Below are positions 2,667 through 50,708 of a stretch of 50,708 nt of DNA, piece after piece. Source of the stretch: a virus. Taxonomy: Duplodnaviria > Caudoviricetes. Below the pieces are notes generated by a model. The model searched no databases. It saw only the letters and a program-made list of their open reading frames with translations, and was not told the DNA's origin. The stretch lies in IMG/VR virus record IMGVR_UViG_3300043414_000745, positions 1-50,708 of that record, one strand, 5' to 3'. Position 1 is the first letter of the stretch. Each line of letters opens with the position of its first letter. A program made the translations under genes and the position numbers.

Positions 2667-5600
2667 ATGACACAAGAACAATATCAATGGCTCAAGAATA
2701 ACGGATACGATCCGGCTGTTCATGACGTAGATGATCAGGGTAATATCTTTGAGAACCCTATTAATCAGCCGCAGCAGAAAGAAGTAATGTCGCCGCTTCG
2801 AGCGGGGCTTACTTCGTTTGCGGGTAACCTGTTGCCTAGTGCGGCTGGTCTTTATGCAGGTGCACAAGCTGGCGGTCTCGGTGGCTCGATGTTTGGACCT
2901 GTCGGCACTATCGTAGGCGGCATCGGTGGCGGTCTCGCTGGCGGCTATGGCGCGGGTAAGCTTCAGGAGAAAGCTCTTGAAGAGTTTGCTCCCGGTGCGG
3001 CTGAAGAGATGGCGAGGGCGCAACGTGATCAGCCTGTTGCTTCTTATGCTGGCGGATTTCTGCCTAACGCTTTGGCACTTAAGCCGTCGTTTGGCGGTAT
3101 CAAAGGACTTGCTGCGCCGTTGATGAGCATGGAGAAAGAAGCTGCCCGTGCGGCTTTCACTCCGGCAGCTCTTAACGTGGGAGCAAACGTAGCTGGCTCG
3201 ACGGCTGGACAGCTTATCGACGTGGCTCAAGGCGGAGAGTTCTCTGTGCCTCGATTCGCAGCGGACGTTGCGTTGGGAAGTGTCTTCTCTGATCCCAATA
3301 AGCTCGGTCGGCGTTTTGGATTGCAGGCTTTGAAACCTGATGTTGCTGCGCCTGAGCAAGCAATGGATCTTGGGGCGCTTCGTGCCACTGAGGGAATGAC
3401 TCCTAGTGAGGTTGAGATGTTTAAGACTCGACCTGAGATGGAATGGTGGAAGCAGCCTGAGTCTACACGTATCGAAGATATTAAAAAAATTGCCAAGCAA
3501 TCTAAAGCTGAGATGCCTAAAGGTATGGCTGAAGAGCTTGCTGGCTTGCCTGAGGTTTATGCTGTCATTCAGGATCCTAAGAAGTTTCCGGAGTTCTTAG
3601 CGTCTTCACTGGAAGAAGCTTTGAATGCGTCGCATGAGCGTTCTGTGCAGCGTAAGTTCTTGAGTCCTGAAGAGCGTGCAGACATTGCTCGGATGGATGA
3701 AAGCAAAAGTGCGTTGGCTGCGCAGAAAGGTACGCCTGAATATCGAGGCGAACAGATGGGTGCCTTGCGTGAGCGCTCTCAAGCTTTCACGCCTGAAGGC
3801 GGTAGTCGCGTGGCTCCTGAAAGCTGGACTCCTGAAGTCGCTAGACCTACTCGTGCGGCCGTCACGACCGAAGAGATCCTTGGGCGTCAGTCTCAAGCGG
3901 CTAAGCCTGTTGACGAAGGCATCTCACTAGAGCAAGCTCTCAAGCCTACGCCTGAAGAAGTTGCTAAGGCTGAGAAGATTCAAGCTGATAATGCTCGCGT
4001 TGAGGCTGAGCAGAATGCTGCTGAGATTCGGAAGATGCAGGATCTTGATGCCGCACAGGCGTTGAGTGATGAAGCTGCTGCGCGTTTGCAGAATTTACAG
4101 GCGCGTCAGGATGAGTTGCTGAAGCTTGCTCAGCGTGCGCCGTCTGTCGTTCGTAAAGGTGTTGCTGAACAAGGCGCACCAGACATCGCTCAAGCTAAAC
4201 AAGAACTCGCTGACGCGCGTGCTATTGCTGCGGATTTATACGCACGCTTACAGAAAGCTGGTGGCGAAGGCTTGATGAGTCAGGCTGATCTTGACGCAGC
4301 TACAAAGCTTGCAGCTCAACGAGGTTTGCGTGTTCTTACTGCTACGCCCGAGCAACAAGCTAAAGGCATTCGTGGCGCTTATGTCGTCAATGAGAATGGC
4401 GAACGTGTTATCTACATCAATCCTTTTGCGGCCACAGCCGACACTGCGATCCATGAAATCGGTCATGATGTGTTTAAGAGATCACCTAATGAACGGATGC
4501 GGCGGTCGCTGATGGACACTGCGATGGATTCTGAAACGTACAAGCGTGAGCTTGAGTATCGTTTGAAAGAAGGCAAGACACAAGATCAAGCTCAAGACCT
4601 TGCACTCGAAGAAGGTCTCGTTCAGGCCTTTGGCGAACAACATCCTAACGTCAAGCCCGGCGAGATTCGTCAGTGGTTTAATGCGCTCAAGTCTTCAGTG
4701 AAGAGCATGGTCGGGATGAAGATATCTCCTGAGGATGCGCTGGCTTGGATGCACTATGCTACGACTGAGGCTGTGCCTTGGAAGGGTGTAGCTGCAGCTA
4801 AAGCTCAAGCTCCTACAGAAGACACACTCAGTCAAGAGACTCGCTATCAGCGTGGACTTCTGGAAAAGATTCAGACTCCTTCAGAGATGGACGCTTTGAT
4901 TCAGAAAGGCGGACCGTTTGAGCGTGTTGGTAGCACGATACGTGATGCATCTAACACTCGCGACTATAAACAGGGCGAGTGGTCGAGCAAGTATTCTCTC
5001 GCTACTAAGTTGCGACCGGATGATCAAGTGCGTTTGTTTAATCACTTAGCACAGGAGTTTGATTCGGGCGTTCGTTCGGCCCCAGCGACAGAGCTTCGTG
5101 CTGCCTATGATCAACTGCGTAACGAGTATCTTCCGGCGATCGTTAACGACTATAACACAGAAGGCTTTACTGTGCGCGACACAGCAGGTCAGCGTGCGCG
5201 TGGCACTAATCCTACATACATTCCGTTGCACGCTATCGCGGATGAAGTCAAGACTATCCTTACAACGCTGCAAGGATCGCCTGAGTATAAAAAGCTTGAG
5301 AATGATTTTAAGCAATGGAACACGCAGCTTCGTCAGGCCGACGGCGCTACTCTTCAAGAAGCTCAGAACTACGCGAATGAGAAGTTTGAAGAGAAGATAC
5401 AGATCACAGCTAAGACACCCGGAATCGAGAGCGGCATTCCTTTCTCTGGTGCGCGTAAGCCTGAAGGTTATCCGTTGCCTCCCAGTTGGCGCAGTACGGA
5501 TTTAATTAGCAATCTCGACAACTATACGAAGCGATCTGCTACGGACTTTGCTTATCAGAAACACGTTGAGAGTTCGCCCGAAGCGATGGCTGCTCTAGGT

Positions 5601-19933: not shown

Positions 19934-20137
19934 TTATTCTTTAACCTCCACAATAAAATCAAAGTTCATTTGCCAACTATCACTCAGTCTGTTATATGTT
20001 TCCTTACCTATCTTCCATGTTCTTGGATCTCTTTTAGATTTGGTATGTCTACATTGTATAGTTACAGTATCCATATCTTTGAACGCCTTGTTTCTTAGCG
20101 TGTGATCGGGCGGCAGTTCATGCAGTTTGTATAGCAT
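19934..20137 (-). CDS. Hypothetical protein
   Basis: 67 aa ORF tiling the operon. Confidence 0.55.
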   Translation of the reverse strand: MLYKLHELPPDHTLRNKAFKDMDTVTIQCRHTKSKRDPRTWKIGKETYNRLSDSWQMNFDFIVEVKE

Positions 20138-20960
20138 ATTCAGGTAGTTCTAGTTCTCCGAGTTCTCTCTTTAGGAGAAGGTTTCTTAGAGCTCGAACAT
20201 TCCCAAAGGAGAATGTCTCGTCGCCGAAGTGTTCGCGCTCGCCAATAGGTGTCCAGTTTTCTTCTTCGATGATAGCCGCTGCGACACATCTGATCTCTTG
20301 AACTCCGCGATCCTTCAAGCTGAATGTCTTCAGCCCGAGTTCGTTGATGCGGAAGTAAAGATCCTCTCTGAACGTGCCTTCCTTTACCATCTTCAACAAG
20401 TCACGATTTGTGGCGAACACGAACCTACATTGAATAGGCACAGGATCGACCGCGCCCACTGGAAGTACGGTCTTGTCTTGTAAGACACGCAAGAGTTTTG
20501 CTTGATGCGCGAGAGGCAACTCGCCTATCTCGTCGAGGAAAGCAGTGCCCTTGCCGACTGCTCTTAGGAAGCCTACGTCGCCCCGTGATTTAGCGCCGGT
20601 AAAAGCGCCGGGCATGTAGCCAAAGAGTTCGCTTTGAAATAGAGTGTCTGTCAGACCAGCCATGTTCATAGCCTTGAGAGGCTTGCGCTTGTGTGATAAG
20701 ATGCGGGCGAGAAGCTCCTTGCCTGTGCCGCTTGGCCCTTCGATGAGTACGTTATAGCGTTGAAGACTTTCTTCGGCGTAGGTTATTGCCGACGTGAGCA
20801 TTCTCTTTGTCGCCGGGTCTTGCGTCGCGTAGGACGATGCGACATTGTGGATACTGTTCTCTTTGAGAGAGTCGCCTGTGATCTTAAGGACGTCCTTCCG
20901 TATGTTATCGAGGAAGCTATCGGCGGCCGAGGTATTGAGTACGTTTGCGTGGATGTTCAT
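20118..20960 (-). CDS. Sigma54 activator (bacterial enhancer-binding protein AAA+ domain only)
   Basis: VLIEGPSGTGKELLAR, SELFGYMPGAFTGA, FLDEIGEL..AHQAKLLRVLQ, FATNRDL, FREDLYFRI, GNVRALRN; no receiver, GAF or HTH domain. Confidence 0.96.
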   Translation of the reverse strand: MNIHANVLNTSAADSFLDNIRKDVLKITGDSLKENSIHNVASSYATQDPATKRMLTSAITYAEESLQRYNVLIEGPSGTGKELLARILSHKRKPLKAMNMAGLTDTLFQSELFGYMPGAFTGAKSRGDVGFLRAVGKGTAFLDEIGELPLAHQAKLLRVLQDKTVLPVGAVDPVPIQCRFVFATNRDLLKMVKEGTFREDLYFRINELGLKTFSLKDRGVQEIRCVAAAIIEEENWTPIGEREHFGDETFSFGNVRALRNLLLKRELGELELPEYAIQTA

Positions 20961-21148
20961 TTCTTTTTCTTTGTTTTATTTTTCTTAGGTTTCTTCTTAT
21001 AGATACTAGGACCGGGATCTCTTAGCTTATACTTCATGATCGCCTTGCGCGCCGCGGCCATCTCTTCTTTGTCTAGGTAGGCCTCATCGAGAGATCCGAG
21101 TTTGATCTTTGCTTTATACTGTTCACCCTTTTGGTGGAAGGCACTCAT
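20957..21148 (-). CDS. Small basic hypothetical protein
   Basis: 63 aa with Lys-rich tail; ATGA-coupled on both sides. Confidence 0.65.
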   Translation of the reverse strand: MSAFHQKGEQYKAKIKLGSLDEAYLDKEEMAAARKAIMKYKLRDPGPSIYKKKPKKNKTKKKK

Positions 21149-21429
21149 TTTCTTTTTAGTTTTAGGATTTCGTTTTGTAGTTTGAAGATAGTGTCGCCTG
21201 CTTTGTTGAGTTGATTAAGTAACTCACTGATCTTTCTCTCATAGTGTTCACGCTTGATGGGCGCGCTATGGATGTTATAAACTATGGTGCGCGACACGCC
21301 GAAGTGCTCTGCGATTTTAACTTGTGGCATATCAGGATGCGCTATCACATAATCTCTGATCTCTTGCTTCTGCTCGGGCGTGAGATAGTAGTTCTTGCGC
21401 GCTAGGTTTGTTATCTTTTTTTCGTACAT
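21145..21429 (-). CDS. HTH DNA-binding protein with C-terminal coiled coil
   Basis: LTPEQKQEI...PQVKIAEHFGVSRTIVYNI followed by Leu heptads. Confidence 0.8.
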   Translation of the reverse strand: MYEKKITNLARKNYYLTPEQKQEIRDYVIAHPDMPQVKIAEHFGVSRTIVYNIHSAPIKREHYERKISELLNQLNKAGDTIFKLQNEILKLKRK

Positions 21430-23908: not shown

Positions 23909-24509
23909 TTTCTTGGTGGTTATTATTTAATGACTCTATGACACCGCGAGTGTCTACGATCTTGATTACTTCTTCGATGGGAAAGTAGCAGTTGATGTTG
24001 TTGAATGCGCCTTTGAGGGCTTCGTTAAGTTGTTTTGATTTATGCAAGTAGACTTCTTCACCTTGGCTTGTGATTGCAATGGCAACTTCTGTTGCCTTCT
24101 GCCGCGTGAAGAGCTTTGCGCGAGAGAGACTGTCGCCGATGAGTTCGATGCGGAGTTCTTCCGCTTTCTTCCTGATGTAGGAAACATCAGAGGCAATGTG
24201 GTTTGCACGTAGAAGTCTCCTTCTTTCATCTGACAAGGCCCATTCGGTTGCATCCCACACGACAGAGTAGTTGTGTCCATCTTCTTCGATTCTCTGAATA
24301 TGGATATGCTCACCTGCGCAGTGAGCTTTGACCCACTCGGCTGTTTCATTTGAAGCAACAATCGCATGGGCAAGATTATTCCCTGGAGTTCTGCGGATGA
24401 AATGCCCTCGCTCTGCATCGACATGACAAGAACACGCTGGGAAGAGCAATCCCCAGAGTTGATAGCTGTTGAGTTTTTCTGGTTCTTCATGAGAGTTTTC
24501 ATTTTGCAT
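23799..24509 (-). CDS. Hypothetical protein
   Basis: 236 aa ORF directly after rpoN; its low-complexity tail overlaps the next gene. Confidence 0.6.
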   Translation of the reverse strand: MQNENSHEEPEKLNSYQLWGLLFPACSCHVDAERGHFIRRTPGNNLAHAIVASNETAEWVKAHCAGEHIHIQRIEEDGHNYSVVWDATEWALSDERRRLLRANHIASDVSYIRKKAEELRIELIGDSLSRAKLFTRQKATEVAIAITSQGEEVYLHKSKQLNEALKGAFNNINCYFPIEEVIKIVDTRGVIESLNNNHQENEQTITEQDNQSSNEVTEEHGESGQEERLAPPTAGG

Positions 24510-25788
24510 AGACTTTACGGAGATGCGAGGGTTGAATGCCTAGCTCTGCTCTGTACTTTGCGATTGTCCGCCGGGCGATTGTGTTCTTAAGCAAGACGAC
24601 GATGTCTTCGTCGCTTAGTGGTCGTGACTTATCTTCGGTTGAGATGATCTCTGAGATTTGATTCTTTATGGATAGGTTACTTTGCATTGTGTTTTGTTCA
24701 TGGTTTACGATAGCTCCGGTGAAGAAGAAGCGAAGTTCATATGTGCCGCGCGGGGTTGAGATGTACTTATTACATACTGCCCGCGAGACGGTTGTCTCAT
24801 GGATCTCACAGACGACTGCGATCTGGGCCATCGTGAGCGGCTTGAGATCGTGGATGTTGCCGGTCTTGAAGAACTCTTGTTGAAAATCTACGATAGCCTT
24901 TGAGACATTAGCTAGTGTGCTTTGCCTCTGCATGATCGATCGGATCAGAAACTTACCGGCCTTTACTTTCTCCCGCACGAACTCTCGATCCTGTGGTTTG
25001 AGCTTGTGGAGATAGCTGAGAACGTGGCTGTTGATTCGATAGACAGGAAGACGCTCGTTGGGCAGGTTGATTGTGCCGTCGGCGAGAAGAAAGACTTCGG
25101 GATCTTTAGGGATGTTATGTGGCAGAGAGAACTCGGCAGCGGGATTATGATTGAGCTTGCGGAGTTGCCTATAGAGATTCTCTATCGTCGTGAATGTCTC
25201 GTTGTATTTCTTCGCGAGCGTGGGAATCTGGCGGCGAGTAAAGAGATCTTCGTCTTGTTGAAGAATGATATAGGCAAGTGAAGAAGTATCTAACTGAAGA
25301 CACAAGCAATCAGCTAGGCCAAGAGCACCTAGCCCTTTAGGATCGAGCGTGCGGATAAAGCGCAGAGATAATCTCTCTTGCGGCGTGAGCGTATCAGGAT
25401 CAAACGGAAAGAATCCTTTCTCGTCGAGCCGATGTATGATGTTTGTCTCCAAACCTGCGATCACTAGTTCACGCGTGAGATATTCTTCTAAGGTCTCCGC
25501 GCGACCGGGATTATTCTCTAGCGGAAACTCTTCTACATACGACGGGATCGTGTTCGATAGAGAAGTCCACTGCATGTCCGCGGGCAATTCTGCCTTGTCG
25601 TTTGCATATGATATCTCTTCTTCAGACTGATTCTGATCAAGAAATTCAACGCAAGGATTATCGTTGATGAAAGACTCCATCACGGTATGGAGTTCGCAAA
25701 GTGGAGCCTGTAATAAGGCAAGACTTTGCTGAAGTTGCGGACTCAATATCAAAGACTGAGTCTGCTTTGCAGAGATGGAAAGTTTCAT
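24499..25788 (-). CDS. rpoN: RNA polymerase sigma54 factor
   Basis: Region I QTQSLILSPQLQQSLALLQ...NPCVE; LDPKGLGA..L.DCL..Q; RQSTL; LKPLTM..IA...IHETTVSRA..NKY; PLSD; RpoN box ARRTIAKYR. Confidence 0.97.
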   Translation of the reverse strand: MKLSISAKQTQSLILSPQLQQSLALLQAPLCELHTVMESFINDNPCVEFLDQNQSEEEISYANDKAELPADMQWTSLSNTIPSYVEEFPLENNPGRAETLEEYLTRELVIAGLETNIIHRLDEKGFFPFDPDTLTPQERLSLRFIRTLDPKGLGALGLADCLCLQLDTSSLAYIILQQDEDLFTRRQIPTLAKKYNETFTTIENLYRQLRKLNHNPAAEFSLPHNIPKDPEVFLLADGTINLPNERLPVYRINSHVLSYLHKLKPQDREFVREKVKAGKFLIRSIMQRQSTLANVSKAIVDFQQEFFKTGNIHDLKPLTMAQIAVVCEIHETTVSRAVCNKYISTPRGTYELRFFFTGAIVNHEQNTMQSNLSIKNQISEIISTEDKSRPLSDEDIVVLLKNTIARRTIAKYRAELGIQPSHLRKVYAK

Positions 25789-25832: not shown

Positions 25833-25849
25833 AGCTTTAGCTGTGCCAA
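25833..25849 (-). promoter_or_regulatory. Sigma54-type promoter candidate upstream of rpoN
   Basis: Minus strand TTGGCACAGCTAAAGCT, just downstream of a terminator. Confidence 0.85.
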
Positions 25850-26727: not shown

Positions 26728-26744
26728 AGCTTTTGAAATGCCAA
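26728..26744 (-). promoter_or_regulatory. Sigma54-type promoter candidate
   Basis: Minus strand TTGGCATTTCAAAAGCT; shares the downstream AAAGCTCTAT(T)CGCTTTA with the rpoN promoter. Confidence 0.85.
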
Positions 26745-28556: not shown

Positions 28557-28611
28557 CCGGGCAGCAAAAAGGAAGGCTCTTTGACCAGAGCCTTCGTGTT
28601 TTGCTGTCTGG
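28557..28611. terminator. Long hairpin/terminator after the first early gene
   Basis: CCGGGCAGCAAAA..GAAGGCTCT ttgacc AGAGCCTTC..TTTTGCTGTCTGG. Confidence 0.75.
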
Positions 28612-28613
28612 CG

Positions 28614-28925
28614 TTATTCGATAGCGTTGACGGCCTTGACTGCTGCAACGGCTTTCAGGTGAGCAAGGAAAGCCTCTTCCATGGCCGCAAGGGCAACAAG
28701 CCGTTGGTAATCCTTGCGGATAGCCGTTGGAATGATCGCGGCCGTTTTCCAAACTGTTCCGGTGACACGGGCACGGGCAGCTGCACGGCCTTTGTCCGAA
28801 GCCGCATCGGAAATAAATTTTTCGGCATCGGTGACTGCATTACCGCTTTCAGCCATAAAGGCCGTCACTGCCCGGGCTTGGTCAACGAAAGGCAGAGTTT
28901 GGTAGTTTTTGGAGTCAATGGTCAT
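28614..28925 (-). CDS. First leftward (putative immediate-early) protein, Ala-rich
   Basis: MTIDSKNY..., 103 aa; flanked by a promoter candidate and a terminator. Confidence 0.7.
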   Translation of the reverse strand: MTIDSKNYQTLPFVDQARAVTAFMAESGNAVTDAEKFISDAASDKGRAAARARVTGTVWKTAAIIPTAIRKDYQRLVALAAMEEAFLAHLKAVAAVKAVNAIE

Positions 28926-29061
28926 ATTAGTGTGAGTTAGTGCCTGCCCGTCTAGCGGGCTTTTTGTTAAAATTGACTGGTCACTTTTCAACAGGTCGCA
29001 AAAAGCGAGTGAAAAAACGAGACTGTCAACCTGTTGCGCTATCGCACAACGAGACCAGTGC

Positions 29062-29078
29062 AGCACTCACGATGCCAA
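29062..29078 (-). promoter_or_regulatory. Sigma54-type promoter candidate for the first early gene
   Basis: Minus strand TTGGCATCGTGAGTGCT. Confidence 0.75.
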
Positions 29079-29131
29079 CCGGCCAAAACGCCAAAACCCC
29101 AATGAATAACGATAACGTAAAATTCACAGAA

Positions 29132-29219
29132 TGCGTGAGATTCACGCACCATGCGTCAAATTCACGCTTTAACGTTATTCATTGGCATTTAACGCCTATA
29201 AATGCGTCAAATTCACGCA
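29132..29219. promoter_or_regulatory. Three 17-bp palindromic sites, putative enhancer (UAS)
   Basis: TGCGTGAGATTCACGCA (29132), TGCGTCAAATTCACGCT (29152), TGCGTCAAATTCACGCA (29203). Confidence 0.7.
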
Positions 29220-29639
29220 TAACGCATAAACGCACAGAAAGGGCCCGCCAGCGCGTTTTCCCTTCAAATGGCTATCTACACTCCAAAACGCTATCAAAAC
29301 GCCTAGAAACAGGCTTTAAACGCCAGCAAACGCTATTCACGGCAACAGACGACAAGGCAAAACACAAGAAAACAAGTGTAAACGATCCCAGGTAAACATT
29401 ACACTTGTAATCTTGTCAACCAGCAGAGCAAAAAAGCGCAGAAAACAGGGAAAACAGGCTCTTAACTCAGTTAAAACGATAATTGTAATATAATATGGTT
29501 AATGCACTTGGCATGGGGGGTACCCATTTATTTTTTATATTATATACTATATATTAACCTTAACCAACAAGACGATACGTTATTCAAGCTAATAAAGACA
29601 CAAGCCCAATTTACCCAATAGGCAATAACCATATTAAAG

Positions 29640-29825
29640 TGTCAAATTTAGTGTTTTACACCCGCCAAACTCACTAAATTAGTGTTTAACATATCCTTTT
29701 ACTATAGTATTATTCAACTATACAATCAATCACTCATATTTAAATACAATAACCGCTATCCTAATAGCCCTATTGTATTTCAATAGCCGCTATTGTACAA
29801 CAAGCCCTATCCTAATACAACAACG
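29640..29825. repeat. Degenerate direct repeats in an AT-rich tract (origin or packaging-site candidate)
   Basis: AAATT(T)AGTGTTT twice; CTATCCTAATA twice; CTATTGTA twice. Confidence 0.55.
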
Positions 29826-29922: not shown

Positions 29923-29938
29923 TGGCATTAGACAAGCT
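29923..29938 (+). promoter_or_regulatory. Sigma54-type promoter candidate for the packaging operon
   Basis: TGGCATTAGACAAGCT, 15 nt before the terS ATG. Confidence 0.8.
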
Positions 29939-29952
29939 TTAGCCCTTTTATA

Positions 29953-30519
29953 ATGAGTGACCTAATGATGCGTAATCAGATTTTGGGGTTAAGGCGGGCC
30001 GGAATGTCTGTTGAAGAGATTTCTGTGGCGCTTGAGATAGACGTTATGGTGGTTAAGCTTGCCTTGGAGGCGCCAGGTGGAAGCGTGGCTGTGAGGAAAG
30101 AAGCCCGTGCGGAAAAAGAAGAAGACATAACCGACGACGTATCCGAACAAGAAGCTAAGGAGATGATGGGCATCATCAAGAACATAGCGCGCGACGAAGA
30201 GAGCGGCGTATATGCCCGGCTGAACGCGGCTAAGTATGCGCACGGCGCCAAGCGAGGTTATCATAAGCGGCATCTGGATATGAACGTAGGCTCGGGCGAA
30301 TTGCTGCTTAAGATCAACGAAGCCTATATGTCCGCGTCTATGCGTGCACGGGCAGCCTTAACTGGCCAATCACTTACCGCCAAAGAACTCACCGTCATAG
30401 AGGCCCCAATAACCGTAGAGGCGAACGCTGTAGAACCTATTGTAGAACCCCAGCTAATCGATCAGACTACGCAATCACAGCCTGCGGCGCTGAATCCCGG
30501 CCCTTTAAAATATGATTAA
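29953..30519 (+). CDS. Putative terminase small subunit
   Basis: N-terminal HTH (LRRAGMSVEEISVALEI); overlaps the terL start. Confidence 0.65.
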   Translation: MSDLMMRNQILGLRRAGMSVEEISVALEIDVMVVKLALEAPGGSVAVRKEARAEKEEDITDDVSEQEAKEMMGIIKNIARDEESGVYARLNAAKYAHGAKRGYHKRHLDMNVGSGELLLKINEAYMSASMRARAALTGQSLTAKELTVIEAPITVEANAVEPIVEPQLIDQTTQSQPAALNPGPLKYD

Positions 30520-49457: not shown

Positions 49458-50708
49458 ACACATTCGAGATTAATCTCTCTATAGTTCTCGGCCACACGTT
49501 GGTCTGGGAATCTACGCGCTTGGAAGTTGACAATGGAATTCCTAGTGGATTCTATCGTAACGGTTCGCCCGTCATTCCGAACACCTCGGAGTCGATGGAA
49601 TCTGTGATGAAGGCTTATCGGGAGAATCTTATCCCGATGATTCAGAATCAAGTGCAGGCCGCTCAGTCTTATGAGCCTGCTATGCAGAAGCTTCGGGCTG
49701 AGATATCGCCCAAAGATCAACAGCTCAATGCGGATCTCTATGCGCAGTTTGGGCCGCAATTCGCAAAGACTGGCTCTGACATTGCGCGACAGAATGCCGA
49801 AGAGCAGGCAAAGACTGACCTTGGTGTCGTAAGCGGCACCGGCCGTGACCTCGTGCGCGAGGCGATGAAGACGCAGAAGGAGGCTGATCCTGAAGCTTAT
49901 CGTGCGCGTGAGCTGGCTTTGCAGAATCTCGAACAGCTTCAAGGATCTCTGACTGATCCCAATGCGGGCTTGAGCGGGGCTGAGCGGGCTGAGGTTGATC
50001 GCTCGATGGCGCGTGAGAACTTTGCACGTGGCACTGGCGCGACCCCGACGGCGACCTCGACTGTGGCTAACGCGATGGCGTTTGGTGGCGCAGGTGAGGC
50101 TCGAAAGCAACAACGTCAAAGCGCAATTGCGAATGCGGCGCAGCTTGCAACGGGCGCAGTGCAGCCTTTGTCGTCGCGCATTGATACGTTCCAGATGACC
50201 ACAGGTCGCCCTTCGATCAATCAAGGCGAATCTCGCACTGGGGCTGCGTCGCAGGTTGGACAAGAGTCGAATGCAATGGGCATGAACTTGTTCGGCAATG
50301 CGAGTCAGATGCGCCAGCAAGAGAATCAACTTAACGCATCACGAAAGACTGGTCTCGATCAGTTCTCGCAGGTTATGGGTTCGCTGCCGTCTTGCTGCTG
50401 GACTTTCGCAGAGGCTTATTACGGCTGGCAGAATATCCCCGATGCGGTTAAGGTGTCGCGTGACTTGCACTATACTCCGCGTATAAGGGAAGGTTATAGA
50501 ATGATGAGCCGCTTTCTAGTACCTAAGATGCAACAGTCTAAAGTCTGGCGCGCTGTCGTTAATGCCCTTCTAATCAAGCCGATGGCTTCTCATGCTGAGT
50601 GGTATGTCAACGGCAAAGGATTTGGATGGATGTTCAGTCCCCTCCAGAAAACTTATCTCGCTTTGTGGGAGCATTACGGAGAACGCGCTGGCGTTCCTGC
50701 CACGGTAT
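49454..50708 (+). CDS. Putative ejection protein, second allele with true N-terminus, runs off the window end
   Basis: ATG at 49454 is in frame (61 codons) with MIQNQ at 49637; homologous to 7..1131. Confidence 0.8.
   Translation, partial: MNTFEINLSIVLGHTLVWESTRLEVDNGIPSGFYRNGSPVIPNTSESMESVMKAYRENLIPMIQNQVQAAQSYEPAMQKLRAEISPKDQQLNADLYAQFGPQFAKTGSDIARQNAEEQAKTDLGVVSGTGRDLVREAMKTQKEADPEAYRARELALQNLEQLQGSLTDPNAGLSGAERAEVDRSMARENFARGTGATPTATSTVANAMAFGGAGEARKQQRQSAIANAAQLATGAVQPLSSRIDTFQMTTGRPSINQGESRTGAASQVGQESNAMGMNLFGNASQMRQQENQLNASRKTGLDQFSQVMGSLPSCCWTFAEAYYGWQNIPDAVKVSRDLHYTPRIREGYRMMSRFLVPKMQQSKVWRAVVNALLIKPMASHAEWYVNGKGFGWMFSPLQKTYLALWEHYGERAGVPATV
49631..50708. repeat. Terminal duplication, copy 2
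   Basis: See 1-1078. Confidence 0.97.

Follow-up and report, generated by a model that had tools for sequence, protein, structure and literature searches.

Which protein recognizes the palindromes that precede an early promoter in a phage encoding its own sigma-54, and what would their occupation mean for the onset of infection? The palindromes are found in a freshwater phage represented by an IMG/VR virus record, which was analysed over its whole length of 50,708 bp and is referred to here as the window (WIN). Its genes point rightward between 1 and 7223, leftward between 28925 and 7277 and once more rightward from 29953 on, and the palindromes share with the early promoter a 1-kb gap that separates two divergent gene blocks. 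The rightward block opens with a 188-aa protein without a PHROG or Pfam family match (putative small terminase), followed by the large terminase, whose top matches among cultured phages are Akkermansia phages (~29% identity). The leftward block includes a helicase, pieces of a DNA polymerase A and a PD-(D/E)XK nuclease in addition to the sigma-54 and activator genes discussed below. No tRNA gene was detected in the record, and no Shine-Dalgarno sequence was found ahead of the 37 listed gene starts. The two ends of the record (1-1078 and 49631-50708) are 91% identical in ungapped register (982 of 1078 positions), which reflects either an imperfect terminal repeat or the joining of two variants during assembly. 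The following features of the gap and its leftward edge are considered:

28572-28595, no strand assigned: terminator-like hairpin with T-runs on both strands, just 3' of the first early gene
28617-28925, minus strand: first early gene, 103 aa, best coding score among overlapping frames
29062-29077, minus strand: sigma-54-type promoter, TGGCAT-N5-GTGCT, with GG at -25/-24, GC at -13/-12 and a predicted start at ~29051
29094-29190, no strand assigned: larger inverted repeat, 22-nt arms (29094-29115 and 29169-29190), 86% complementary
29114-29130, no strand assigned: weak fourth site, 9 of 14 specified positions by hand count, centre at -71
29132-29148, no strand assigned: site 1, perfect 7-3-7 palindrome TGCGTGA-GAT-TCACGCA, centre at -89
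29152-29168, no strand assigned: site 2, TGCGTCA-AAT-TCACGCT, centre at -109, 20 bp from site 1
29203-29219, no strand assigned: site 3, TGCGTCA-AAT-TCACGCA, centre at -160

An initial annotation had described three copies of a 17-mer, one of them a perfect palindrome, and this was borne out by a search with the motif TGCGTSA-N3-TCACGCW, which returned three copies without mismatch, at 29132, 29152 and 29203, and no other in the 50.7 kb. Recomputing their centres, counted from a start at 29051 that is set 12 nt past the GC of the promoter, gave the same distances as before (89, 109 and 160 bp, the first two sites 20 bp apart). The degenerate fourth copy reported at 29114 exists and its sequence is kept in two related phage copies (L010 and L174), but it is weak and is missed by a motif search at up to three mismatches. 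Allowing two mismatches on both strands, eight matches occur in the window against 1.47 expected, a number reached by none of 100 shuffles, and only two of them, at 4282 and 10514 with two mismatches each, lie outside the gap. The sites are beyond chance and confined to one spot in the phage. The larger inverted repeat encloses the weak site together with sites 1 and 2; its arms hold TAACG repeats, and similar arms are visible in L010.

The promoter sequence on the minus strand at 29077-29062, TGGCATCGTGAGTGCT, presents a -24 GG and a -12 GC element 10 nt apart and facing a gene. The frame at 28925-28617 has the best coding score, and the promoter thus faces a real gene, for which no Pfam or PHROG match and no homologue in 12 relatives were found; L174 has a similar start. 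The hairpin at 28572-28595 could limit the reach of transcripts from the early promoter, and the fold of the 5' leader is unremarkable (z = -1.98). The dyad sites at -89, -109 and -160 fall within the range of about 70-200 bp upstream, and on one helical face, that is usual for sigma-54 enhancers, and they remain at least 55 bp upstream of the -24 element rather than over the promoter core. The spacer between enhancer and promoter is rich in A/T-tracts and holds a conserved CCAATGAATAACGATAACG stretch; by eye, no match to the IHF consensus was apparent in it. Sigma-70-type promoters were considered as well and discarded, as the six matches (3.9 expected) all lie in the AT-rich segment 29487-29799 and no good promoter of this type was found facing the early genes. 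Genome-wide, the canonical sigma-54 consensus shows no enrichment, with 30 matches against 45.8 expected.

Do such sites exist in bacteria? One genome per prokaryotic species was scanned for two 15-mers of the form GCGTSA-N3-TSACGC placed 1-31 bp apart. The scan returned at least 120 loci, against about one or two (a few) expected by chance according to a rough hand estimate that assumes equal base use. Among the 126 matches listed, 51 have a gap of 5 bp, i.e., 20 bp from centre to centre, 14 a gap of 6 bp and 9 a gap of 7 bp, so that the commonest gap among the matches listed corresponds to the arrangement of sites 1 and 2 in the phage. Promoters were then examined at the 76 listed loci whose gaps measure 5-8 bp. 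A sigma-54 promoter matching at least 9 of 11 positions at 40-95 bp from the pair is present in 45 of these 76 listed loci, as compared with 35 of 3367 random positions (1.0%); with a threshold of 8, the figures are 55 of the 76 listed loci and 5.6% of random positions, and with a threshold of 10, 17 of 76 and 0.2%. Scanning bacterial genomes near -24/-12 promoters had been put forward as a check on the initial reading, which it passed: the motif recurs upstream of cellular sigma-54 promoters, as is expected of a bacterial enhancer, and the architecture of the phage sites is identical to that of these bacterial enhancers.

The distances between pair and promoter in the 45 loci are 42 (4 loci), 46 (1), 51-54 (22), 61-66 (14), 71 (1) and 76-78 bp (3); the groups at 42, 51-54, 61-66 and 76-78 follow each other in steps of about one helical turn. 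In the phage, 55 bp separate the edge of site 1 from the promoter, and the host loci cluster at 51-54 bp. The -12 pentamers of the 45 host promoters are ATGCT (22), TTGCT (9), GTGCT (5), CTGCT (2) and others, and those of the phage copies, GTGCT in WIN, TTGCT, and CTGCT in L174, are all among the host variants. The host-like TGC at -12 that had been remarked upon earlier is consequently a real distinction, as the other conserved promoters of the phage carry AAGCT or AGGCT at this position, which leaves the early promoter as the sole host-like one facing a gene from a non-coding gap. A third site was found in 2 of the 45 host loci. Forty of the 76 listed loci are labelled Verrucomicrobiota (Limisphaerales, subdivision 3, Verrucomicrobiia and one Akkermansia muciniphila assembly); several genomes contribute many of the 76 loci, and the remaining labels are unclassified or scattered. 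Some motif loci are labelled Bifidobacteriaceae, Binatia or Acidoferrum, and such labels of metagenome-assembled genomes (MAGs) can be wrong.

The genes controlled by the bacterial enhancers point to the nature of the regulator. Of the 45 promoter-bearing loci, 22 code for a prepilin-type N-terminus (GFTLIELLVV...) no more than 600 nt downstream. One locus (L104) has the order histidine kinase, activator with REC, AAA+, lid and HTH_8 domains, site pair, promoter and N_methyl plus DUF1559 gene. Its kinase has HisKA/HATPase domains and matches the PilS membrane domain (PF25323, 6TM_PilS) at 19.6 bits, below the cut-off of 27. A second locus (L099) appears to mirror this arrangement, with a neighbouring activator gene and a downstream prepilin-type ORF, and a third (L058) has an activator gene beside the sites too; in these three loci, a gene for an NtrC-family regulator lies directly upstream of the sites. 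The kinase-activator-pilin layout occurs in two of the 76 listed loci (L104 and L099), and no activator gene was found in the 8 kb examined at the others. Because activator genes lie beside the sites and prepilin-type genes downstream of them, the binder is most likely a PilR-like regulator, that is, an NtrC-family response regulator in a PilS/PilR-like setting. When five host genomes were searched with the L104 activator, dozens of paralogues were obtained and the binder was not singled out.

PilS-PilR controls type IV pilin genes from sigma-54 promoters in Pseudomonas, Myxococcus, Geobacter and Xanthomonas (PilRX). The bacterial loci resemble this system in that the sites lie upstream of the promoter and, in L104 and L099, the regulator gene immediately precedes the sigma-54 promoter of a prepilin-type gene, in L104 together with a kinase gene. 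They differ from it in the GCGTGA-N3-TCACGC pairs 20 bp apart, which are not known as the PilR site of Pseudomonas, in their targets, which are mostly DUF1559-type proteins of the PVC group (Planctomycetes-Verrucomicrobia-Chlamydiae), in the sub-threshold match of the kinase to the PilS-like membrane domain, and in the presence of the sites in a phage. The initial annotation had instead likened the palindromes to NtrC sites. At E. coli glnAp2, the NtrC enhancer consists of 17-bp 7-3-7 sites on one helix face, 80-160 bp upstream of a -24/-12 promoter, and the 7-3-7 symmetry, the placement of several sites on one face and the distance upstream are indeed shared. However, the NtrC (GlnG) consensus, TGCACCA-N3-TGGTGCA, is not matched, since the half-site is TGCGTGA or TGCGTCA, and the context is that of a regulator of prepilin-type, i.e., pilin-like, genes rather than of nitrogen assimilation; a PilR-like regulator of Verrucomicrobiota is the better analogy. 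Three sites, all needed for activation, also constitute the NorR enhancer at norV. Both systems place three dyad sites, suited to an activator hexamer, ahead of a sigma-54 promoter; NorR differs in having no receiver domain and other targets, and the host loci found here usually have two sites.

Downstream of nine host promoters (L030, L043, L068, L070, L071, L077, L085, L100 and L119), the leader holds TTGACAG, followed after ~30 nt by CTGTC, likely forming a stem in one subfamily of host prepilin-type genes; T(T/G)GACA occurs within 70 nt in 9 of the 45 host loci. GGTTGACAGT occurs at 29019-29010 in the leader of the phage, perhaps by chance.

The same motif bears on the identity of the host. 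Perfect GCGTGA-N3-TCACGC 15-mers number 8, 11 and 11 in three Verrucomicrobiota genomes, often paired 20-21 bp apart, with none found for a reversed-pattern control; one occurs in a Bacteroidota genome and three in a gammaproteobacterial genome. The Akkermansia muciniphila genome is among those with 11, and it encodes few regulators of the REC-AAA+-HTH_8 type. Likewise, the phage RpoN is most similar to three Verrucomicrobiota RpoN proteins (189-208 bits, 40-42% identity), followed by those of Auribacterota (184 bits), Lentisphaeria (183), the L104 genome (177), Acidobacteriota (158), Bacteroidota (122) and Gammaproteobacteria (112); no match to it was found in a Planctomycetota genome. Taken together, motif counts and RpoN similarity make a member of the Verrucomicrobiota, assigned at the phylum level, the likely host. 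A Bacteroidota host, prompted by the absent Shine-Dalgarno sequences, was rejected, as no TAnnTTTG promoter faces the early genes and both RpoN similarity and motif counts favour Verrucomicrobiota.

These observations make it probable that the palindromes are an upstream activating sequence (UAS, enhancer) of the kind found at sigma-54 promoters of prepilin-type genes in Verrucomicrobiota and related bacteria, and that a host regulator acting there switches on infection. The earlier proposal of host sigma-54 activator sites feeding a host-type promoter is thereby upheld by bacterial loci that have the same 15-mer core in the same 20-bp tandem, at helically phased distances upstream of sigma-54 promoters; its comparison with NtrC holds for geometry only.

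Related phages add to this picture. Sigma-54 proteins with 74-90% identity to that of the phage are encoded at twelve IMG/VR loci, and the best 120 hits of a broad protein search were all phage-type sigma-54 sequences. Sequencing runs that contain relatives of the phage, matched by small shares of the sampled words, are labelled freshwater, river, lake and wastewater metagenomes; no RNA run containing the stretch was found among the runs listed. The early promoter is kept in L010, L007 and L004 (-12 TTGCT) and in the metagenome contig L174 (CTGCT). The sites, whose conservation the initial annotation had named as a further check, are present in L010 and L174, but L004 keeps the promoter without such sites, so they are not indispensable to every member of the family. 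The L007 sequence ends at the promoter and the site region lies outside it; the early region is different in L006, L008, L009 and L012. A viral scan for further phage copies gave the L010 contig alone, and a pattern search of metagenomes gave L174 alone. In a three-way alignment of WIN, L010 and L174, the cores of sites 1 and 3 (GCGTGA and T(C/G)ACGC) are invariant and the 3-bp spacers vary; a 1-bp insertion disrupts site 2 of L010. Overall identity across the region amounts to 86-87% among the three copies, and site conservation by itself therefore carries modest weight. Between enhancer and promoter, L010 has 10 bp fewer, giving an offset of 45 bp as opposed to 55 bp in WIN and L174. This indel amounts to one helical turn and the helical phase is thus kept across the phage copies.

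Two further palindromes were encountered in the relatives. The palindrome TGACCA-N3-TGGTCA of L004 was tried as a host motif and rejected, with 2, 0, 0, 0 and 3 occurrences in five genomes and up to 1 for the control. In L008 (40-56) and L009 (739-755, both numbered within the cut-out regions), a palindrome resembling AGGCAAAGTATTTGCCT can be read on either strand as a -24/-12 site and is accompanied at ~20 bp by a perfect GCACAAG-N3-CTTGTGC palindrome; neither phage has an early promoter of the WIN type.

Phase-preserving change is difficult to reconcile with a role of the sites as a decoy that soaks up the host regulator and shuts down the prepilin-type regulon, for example to block superinfection or to save resources. 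Such a function would be in line with three strong phage sites, compared with the usual two in host loci, and with the occurrence of the pair in other viral contigs without a recognisable sigma-54 promoter. Yet a decoy would not account for the host-like, phased distance to a conserved -24/-12 promoter facing the early genes or for a 10-bp indel that preserves phase, and with a handful of sites on each genome copy, little of the regulator would be titrated before replication. We regard the decoy as unlikely. The viral contigs in question are nine IMG/VR contigs with ATGCGTGA-N3-TCACGCAT pairs at gaps of 5-8 bp (L138, L140, L141, L142, L144, L145, L147, L153 and L158), with as many as four sites in L147; TTAACGTTAACG is also present next to the sites in L141 and L147. 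Homologues of the phage genes for RpoN, activator, helicase and terminase were absent from the DNA examined of these nine contigs, as were sigma-54 promoters with a score of at least 8 at a distance of 35-100 bp. The pair can thus occur in phages in other contexts.

The enhancer and promoter might also be passive cargo, picked up together from a host chromosome and playing no part in the timing of infection. The first gene past the promoter differs between WIN/L174 on the one hand and L010/L007/L004 on the other, which indicates recombination at this spot and would suit such an origin. It also means that the promoter has been kept ahead of two different first genes, and the sites have been kept in three phage copies with changes that preserve phase, neither of which is expected of cargo; moreover, no prepilin-type gene lies downstream in the phage, and its spacer shows no evident similarity to the host spacers compared. 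Passive carriage is accordingly considered quite unlikely, and an enhancer read by a host regulator stays the preferred explanation.

The phage also encodes a transcription machinery of its own, with the following components:

20118-20960, minus strand: sigma-54 activator ATPase, 280 aa, with GAFTGA motif (Pfam Sigma54_activat, E 1.9e-49)
21145-21429: HTH and coiled-coil protein, 94 aa, adjoining the activator gene
24499-25788, minus strand: RpoN (sigma-54), full-length, 429 aa, with Pfam activator-interacting, core-binding and DNA-binding domains (E 2e-12 to 2e-48)
25833-25848, minus strand: phage-type promoter upstream of rpoN, TGGCAC-N5-AAGCT
26728-26743, minus strand: phage-type promoter upstream of 26631, TGGCAY-N5-AAGCT
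29923-29938, plus strand: phage-type promoter upstream of the packaging and structural genes, TGGCAT-N5-AAGCT, with ATG 16 nt past GC

A counterpart of the promoter upstream of 26631 exists in every relative reaching this place, and one of the rpoN promoter in 10 of 10, L004 and L007 having AAGCT and the remaining eight AGGCT. The packaging-gene promoter is found in three of the five relatives reaching it (L006, L008 and L012); the same regular expression does not find it in L004 or L009. All three phage-type promoters are followed by a similar CTATCGCTTTA-like stretch. The use of AAGCT or AGGCT where hosts have TGCT suggests that the phage sigma-54 has a -12 preference of its own. At the packaging-gene promoter (29923-29955) and at the early promoter of L010, L007 and L004, the start codon lies 16 nt past GC, corresponding to a leader of ~3-4 nt.

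The phage activator aligns to the AAA+ core alone of solved activators and stops ~18 residues past the GNVRAL (sensor II) motif, without a DNA-binding domain, and a tblastn search of the phage found no HTH_8-like stretch. Sigma-54 activators without a DNA-binding domain are known from Helicobacter (FlgR) and Chlamydia (CtcC). The phage protein resembles them in possessing an AAA+ core with GAFTGA and nothing past the lid; it differs in having no receiver domain either and in being encoded beside a phage sigma-54. The HTH protein may supply DNA targeting for this activator. Its gene is the most variable of the conserved early genes, with 47-59% identity (tblastn) as compared with 93-96% for the activator.

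Since this HTH gene adjoins that of an activator without a DNA-binding domain, the palindromes might be operators at which a dimeric DNA-binding protein of the phage, such as the HTH protein itself, acts as repressor or activator of the early promoter; a set of three 17-bp palindromes between divergent genes is moreover reminiscent of lambdoid operators. Sites and protein do not vary together: the HTH proteins of WIN and L010 are 47% identical with different putative recognition helices, yet the sites are common to both, those of L004 and L006 are identical, yet their early regions differ, and the six HTH sequence groups do not track the presence of the palindromes, for which reason the HTH protein was rejected as the binder. 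A lambdoid operator array was rejected as well, with sites off the promoter core (-71 to -160) and no repressor-like gene flanking the gap. In addition, motif and spacing recur in bacterial genomes without any link to the phage. Phage-encoded operators are consequently a very unlikely interpretation.

The gap holds several other repeats and hairpins. Strand-biased direct repeats fill 29080-29350, where AACG occurs 11 times against 1.2 expected and AAACGC 6 times out of 18 genome-wide, partly paired 8-11 bp apart; they might be iterons or bind some other protein. L010 shows repeats resembling these, and repeats of the TAACGTTA type can be seen in L004 and L009. At 29745-29820, about 110-200 bp upstream of the late promoter, WIN carries TACAATAACCGCTATCCTAATA-like 22-mers; upstream of their packaging genes, L004, L006, L008 and L012 have ATGCAT-N9-ATGCAT and L009 has TAACGTTATAACGTTA. 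These packaging-side repeats do not simply track the HTH groups, as L008 shares the repeat of L004 at 40% HTH identity. Two hairpins lie in the non-coding gap, one with 18-nt arms that are 89% complementary (29364-29416) and the other terminator-like (GGGTACCC), its T-run lying on the plus strand (29513-29536), each possibly a small RNA or an origin element.

That the palindromes serve a replication origin or a packaging protein is highly improbable: the gap does combine AAACGC direct repeats, an AT-rich stretch and other repeats at 0.8 kb upstream of the putative small terminase gene, but this reading fits those other repeats, which are separate elements, better than palindromes that match a promoter-linked bacterial motif, and the repeats near the terminase gene of the relatives differ in sequence and position.

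If the palindromes act as an enhancer for a host regulator, infection could start as follows. After DNA entry, host polymerase carrying host sigma-54 would form a closed complex on the promoter at 29077-29062. A host regulator of the NtrC family (receiver, AAA+ and Fis-type HTH domains), which gene context marks as PilR-like, would occupy -89, -109 and -160 as dimers on one helix face, assemble into an oligomer, contact the polymerase through DNA looping and open the promoter by ATP hydrolysis. Transcription would then proceed leftward into the early genes, and by read-through the phage sigma-54 would be made, as would the activator that has no DNA-binding domain; the two would then take charge of the AAGCT promoters. 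Such a hand-over from host to phage is plausible; read-through past the hairpin at 28572-28595 to rpoN (3 kb) and the activator gene (8 kb) is assumed. The phage's own activator might also open the early promoter from solution. A more specific model, in which an abundant freshwater phage of Verrucomicrobiota would use sigma-54 promoters alone, enter expression through a copied host pilin enhancer and promoter that fire only in cells with an active PilR-like system, and then hand over to a phage sigma-54 and activator reading AAGCT, is put forward tentatively, and we consider it more apt to fail than to hold in all its parts.

Textbook phages begin infection at housekeeping sigma-70 promoters and require no signal to do so. 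The early promoters A1-A3 of T7 and PL/PR of lambda are read by the unmodified host polymerase with its housekeeping sigma-70 and without an activator. The scheme proposed here is similar in that first transcripts would depend wholly on host machinery and later classes on phage-encoded factors; it differs in that the point of entry would need sigma-54 and a signal-dependent host activator. A sigma-54 enhancer as such is of a known kind. What would be new is that a phage employs it to begin infection and at the same time encodes a sigma-54 and an activator. In those parts of the literature opened to full-text searches, no description of a phage-encoded sigma-54 or of a phage enhancer for a host activator was found; the pair of phage sigma-54 and activator was encountered neither there nor among cultured phages, and no link between DUF1559 genes, sigma-54 and Verrucomicrobia was found in the sources searched in this way.

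The entry promoter appears to need sigma-54 and a host activator controlled by phosphorylation. If this is true, the onset of infection would be conditional on the signalling state of the host, and, on the more specific model above, the promoter would fire only in cells with an active PilR-like two-component system, possibly the very cells that display the phage receptor. Beyond the phage itself, the comparison suggests which sequence and which regulon may belong to an NtrC-family regulator that would control prepilin-type (DUF1559) genes of Verrucomicrobiota, neither of which was encountered in the literature searched, and it gives a likely host phylum for a widespread group of uncultured phages.
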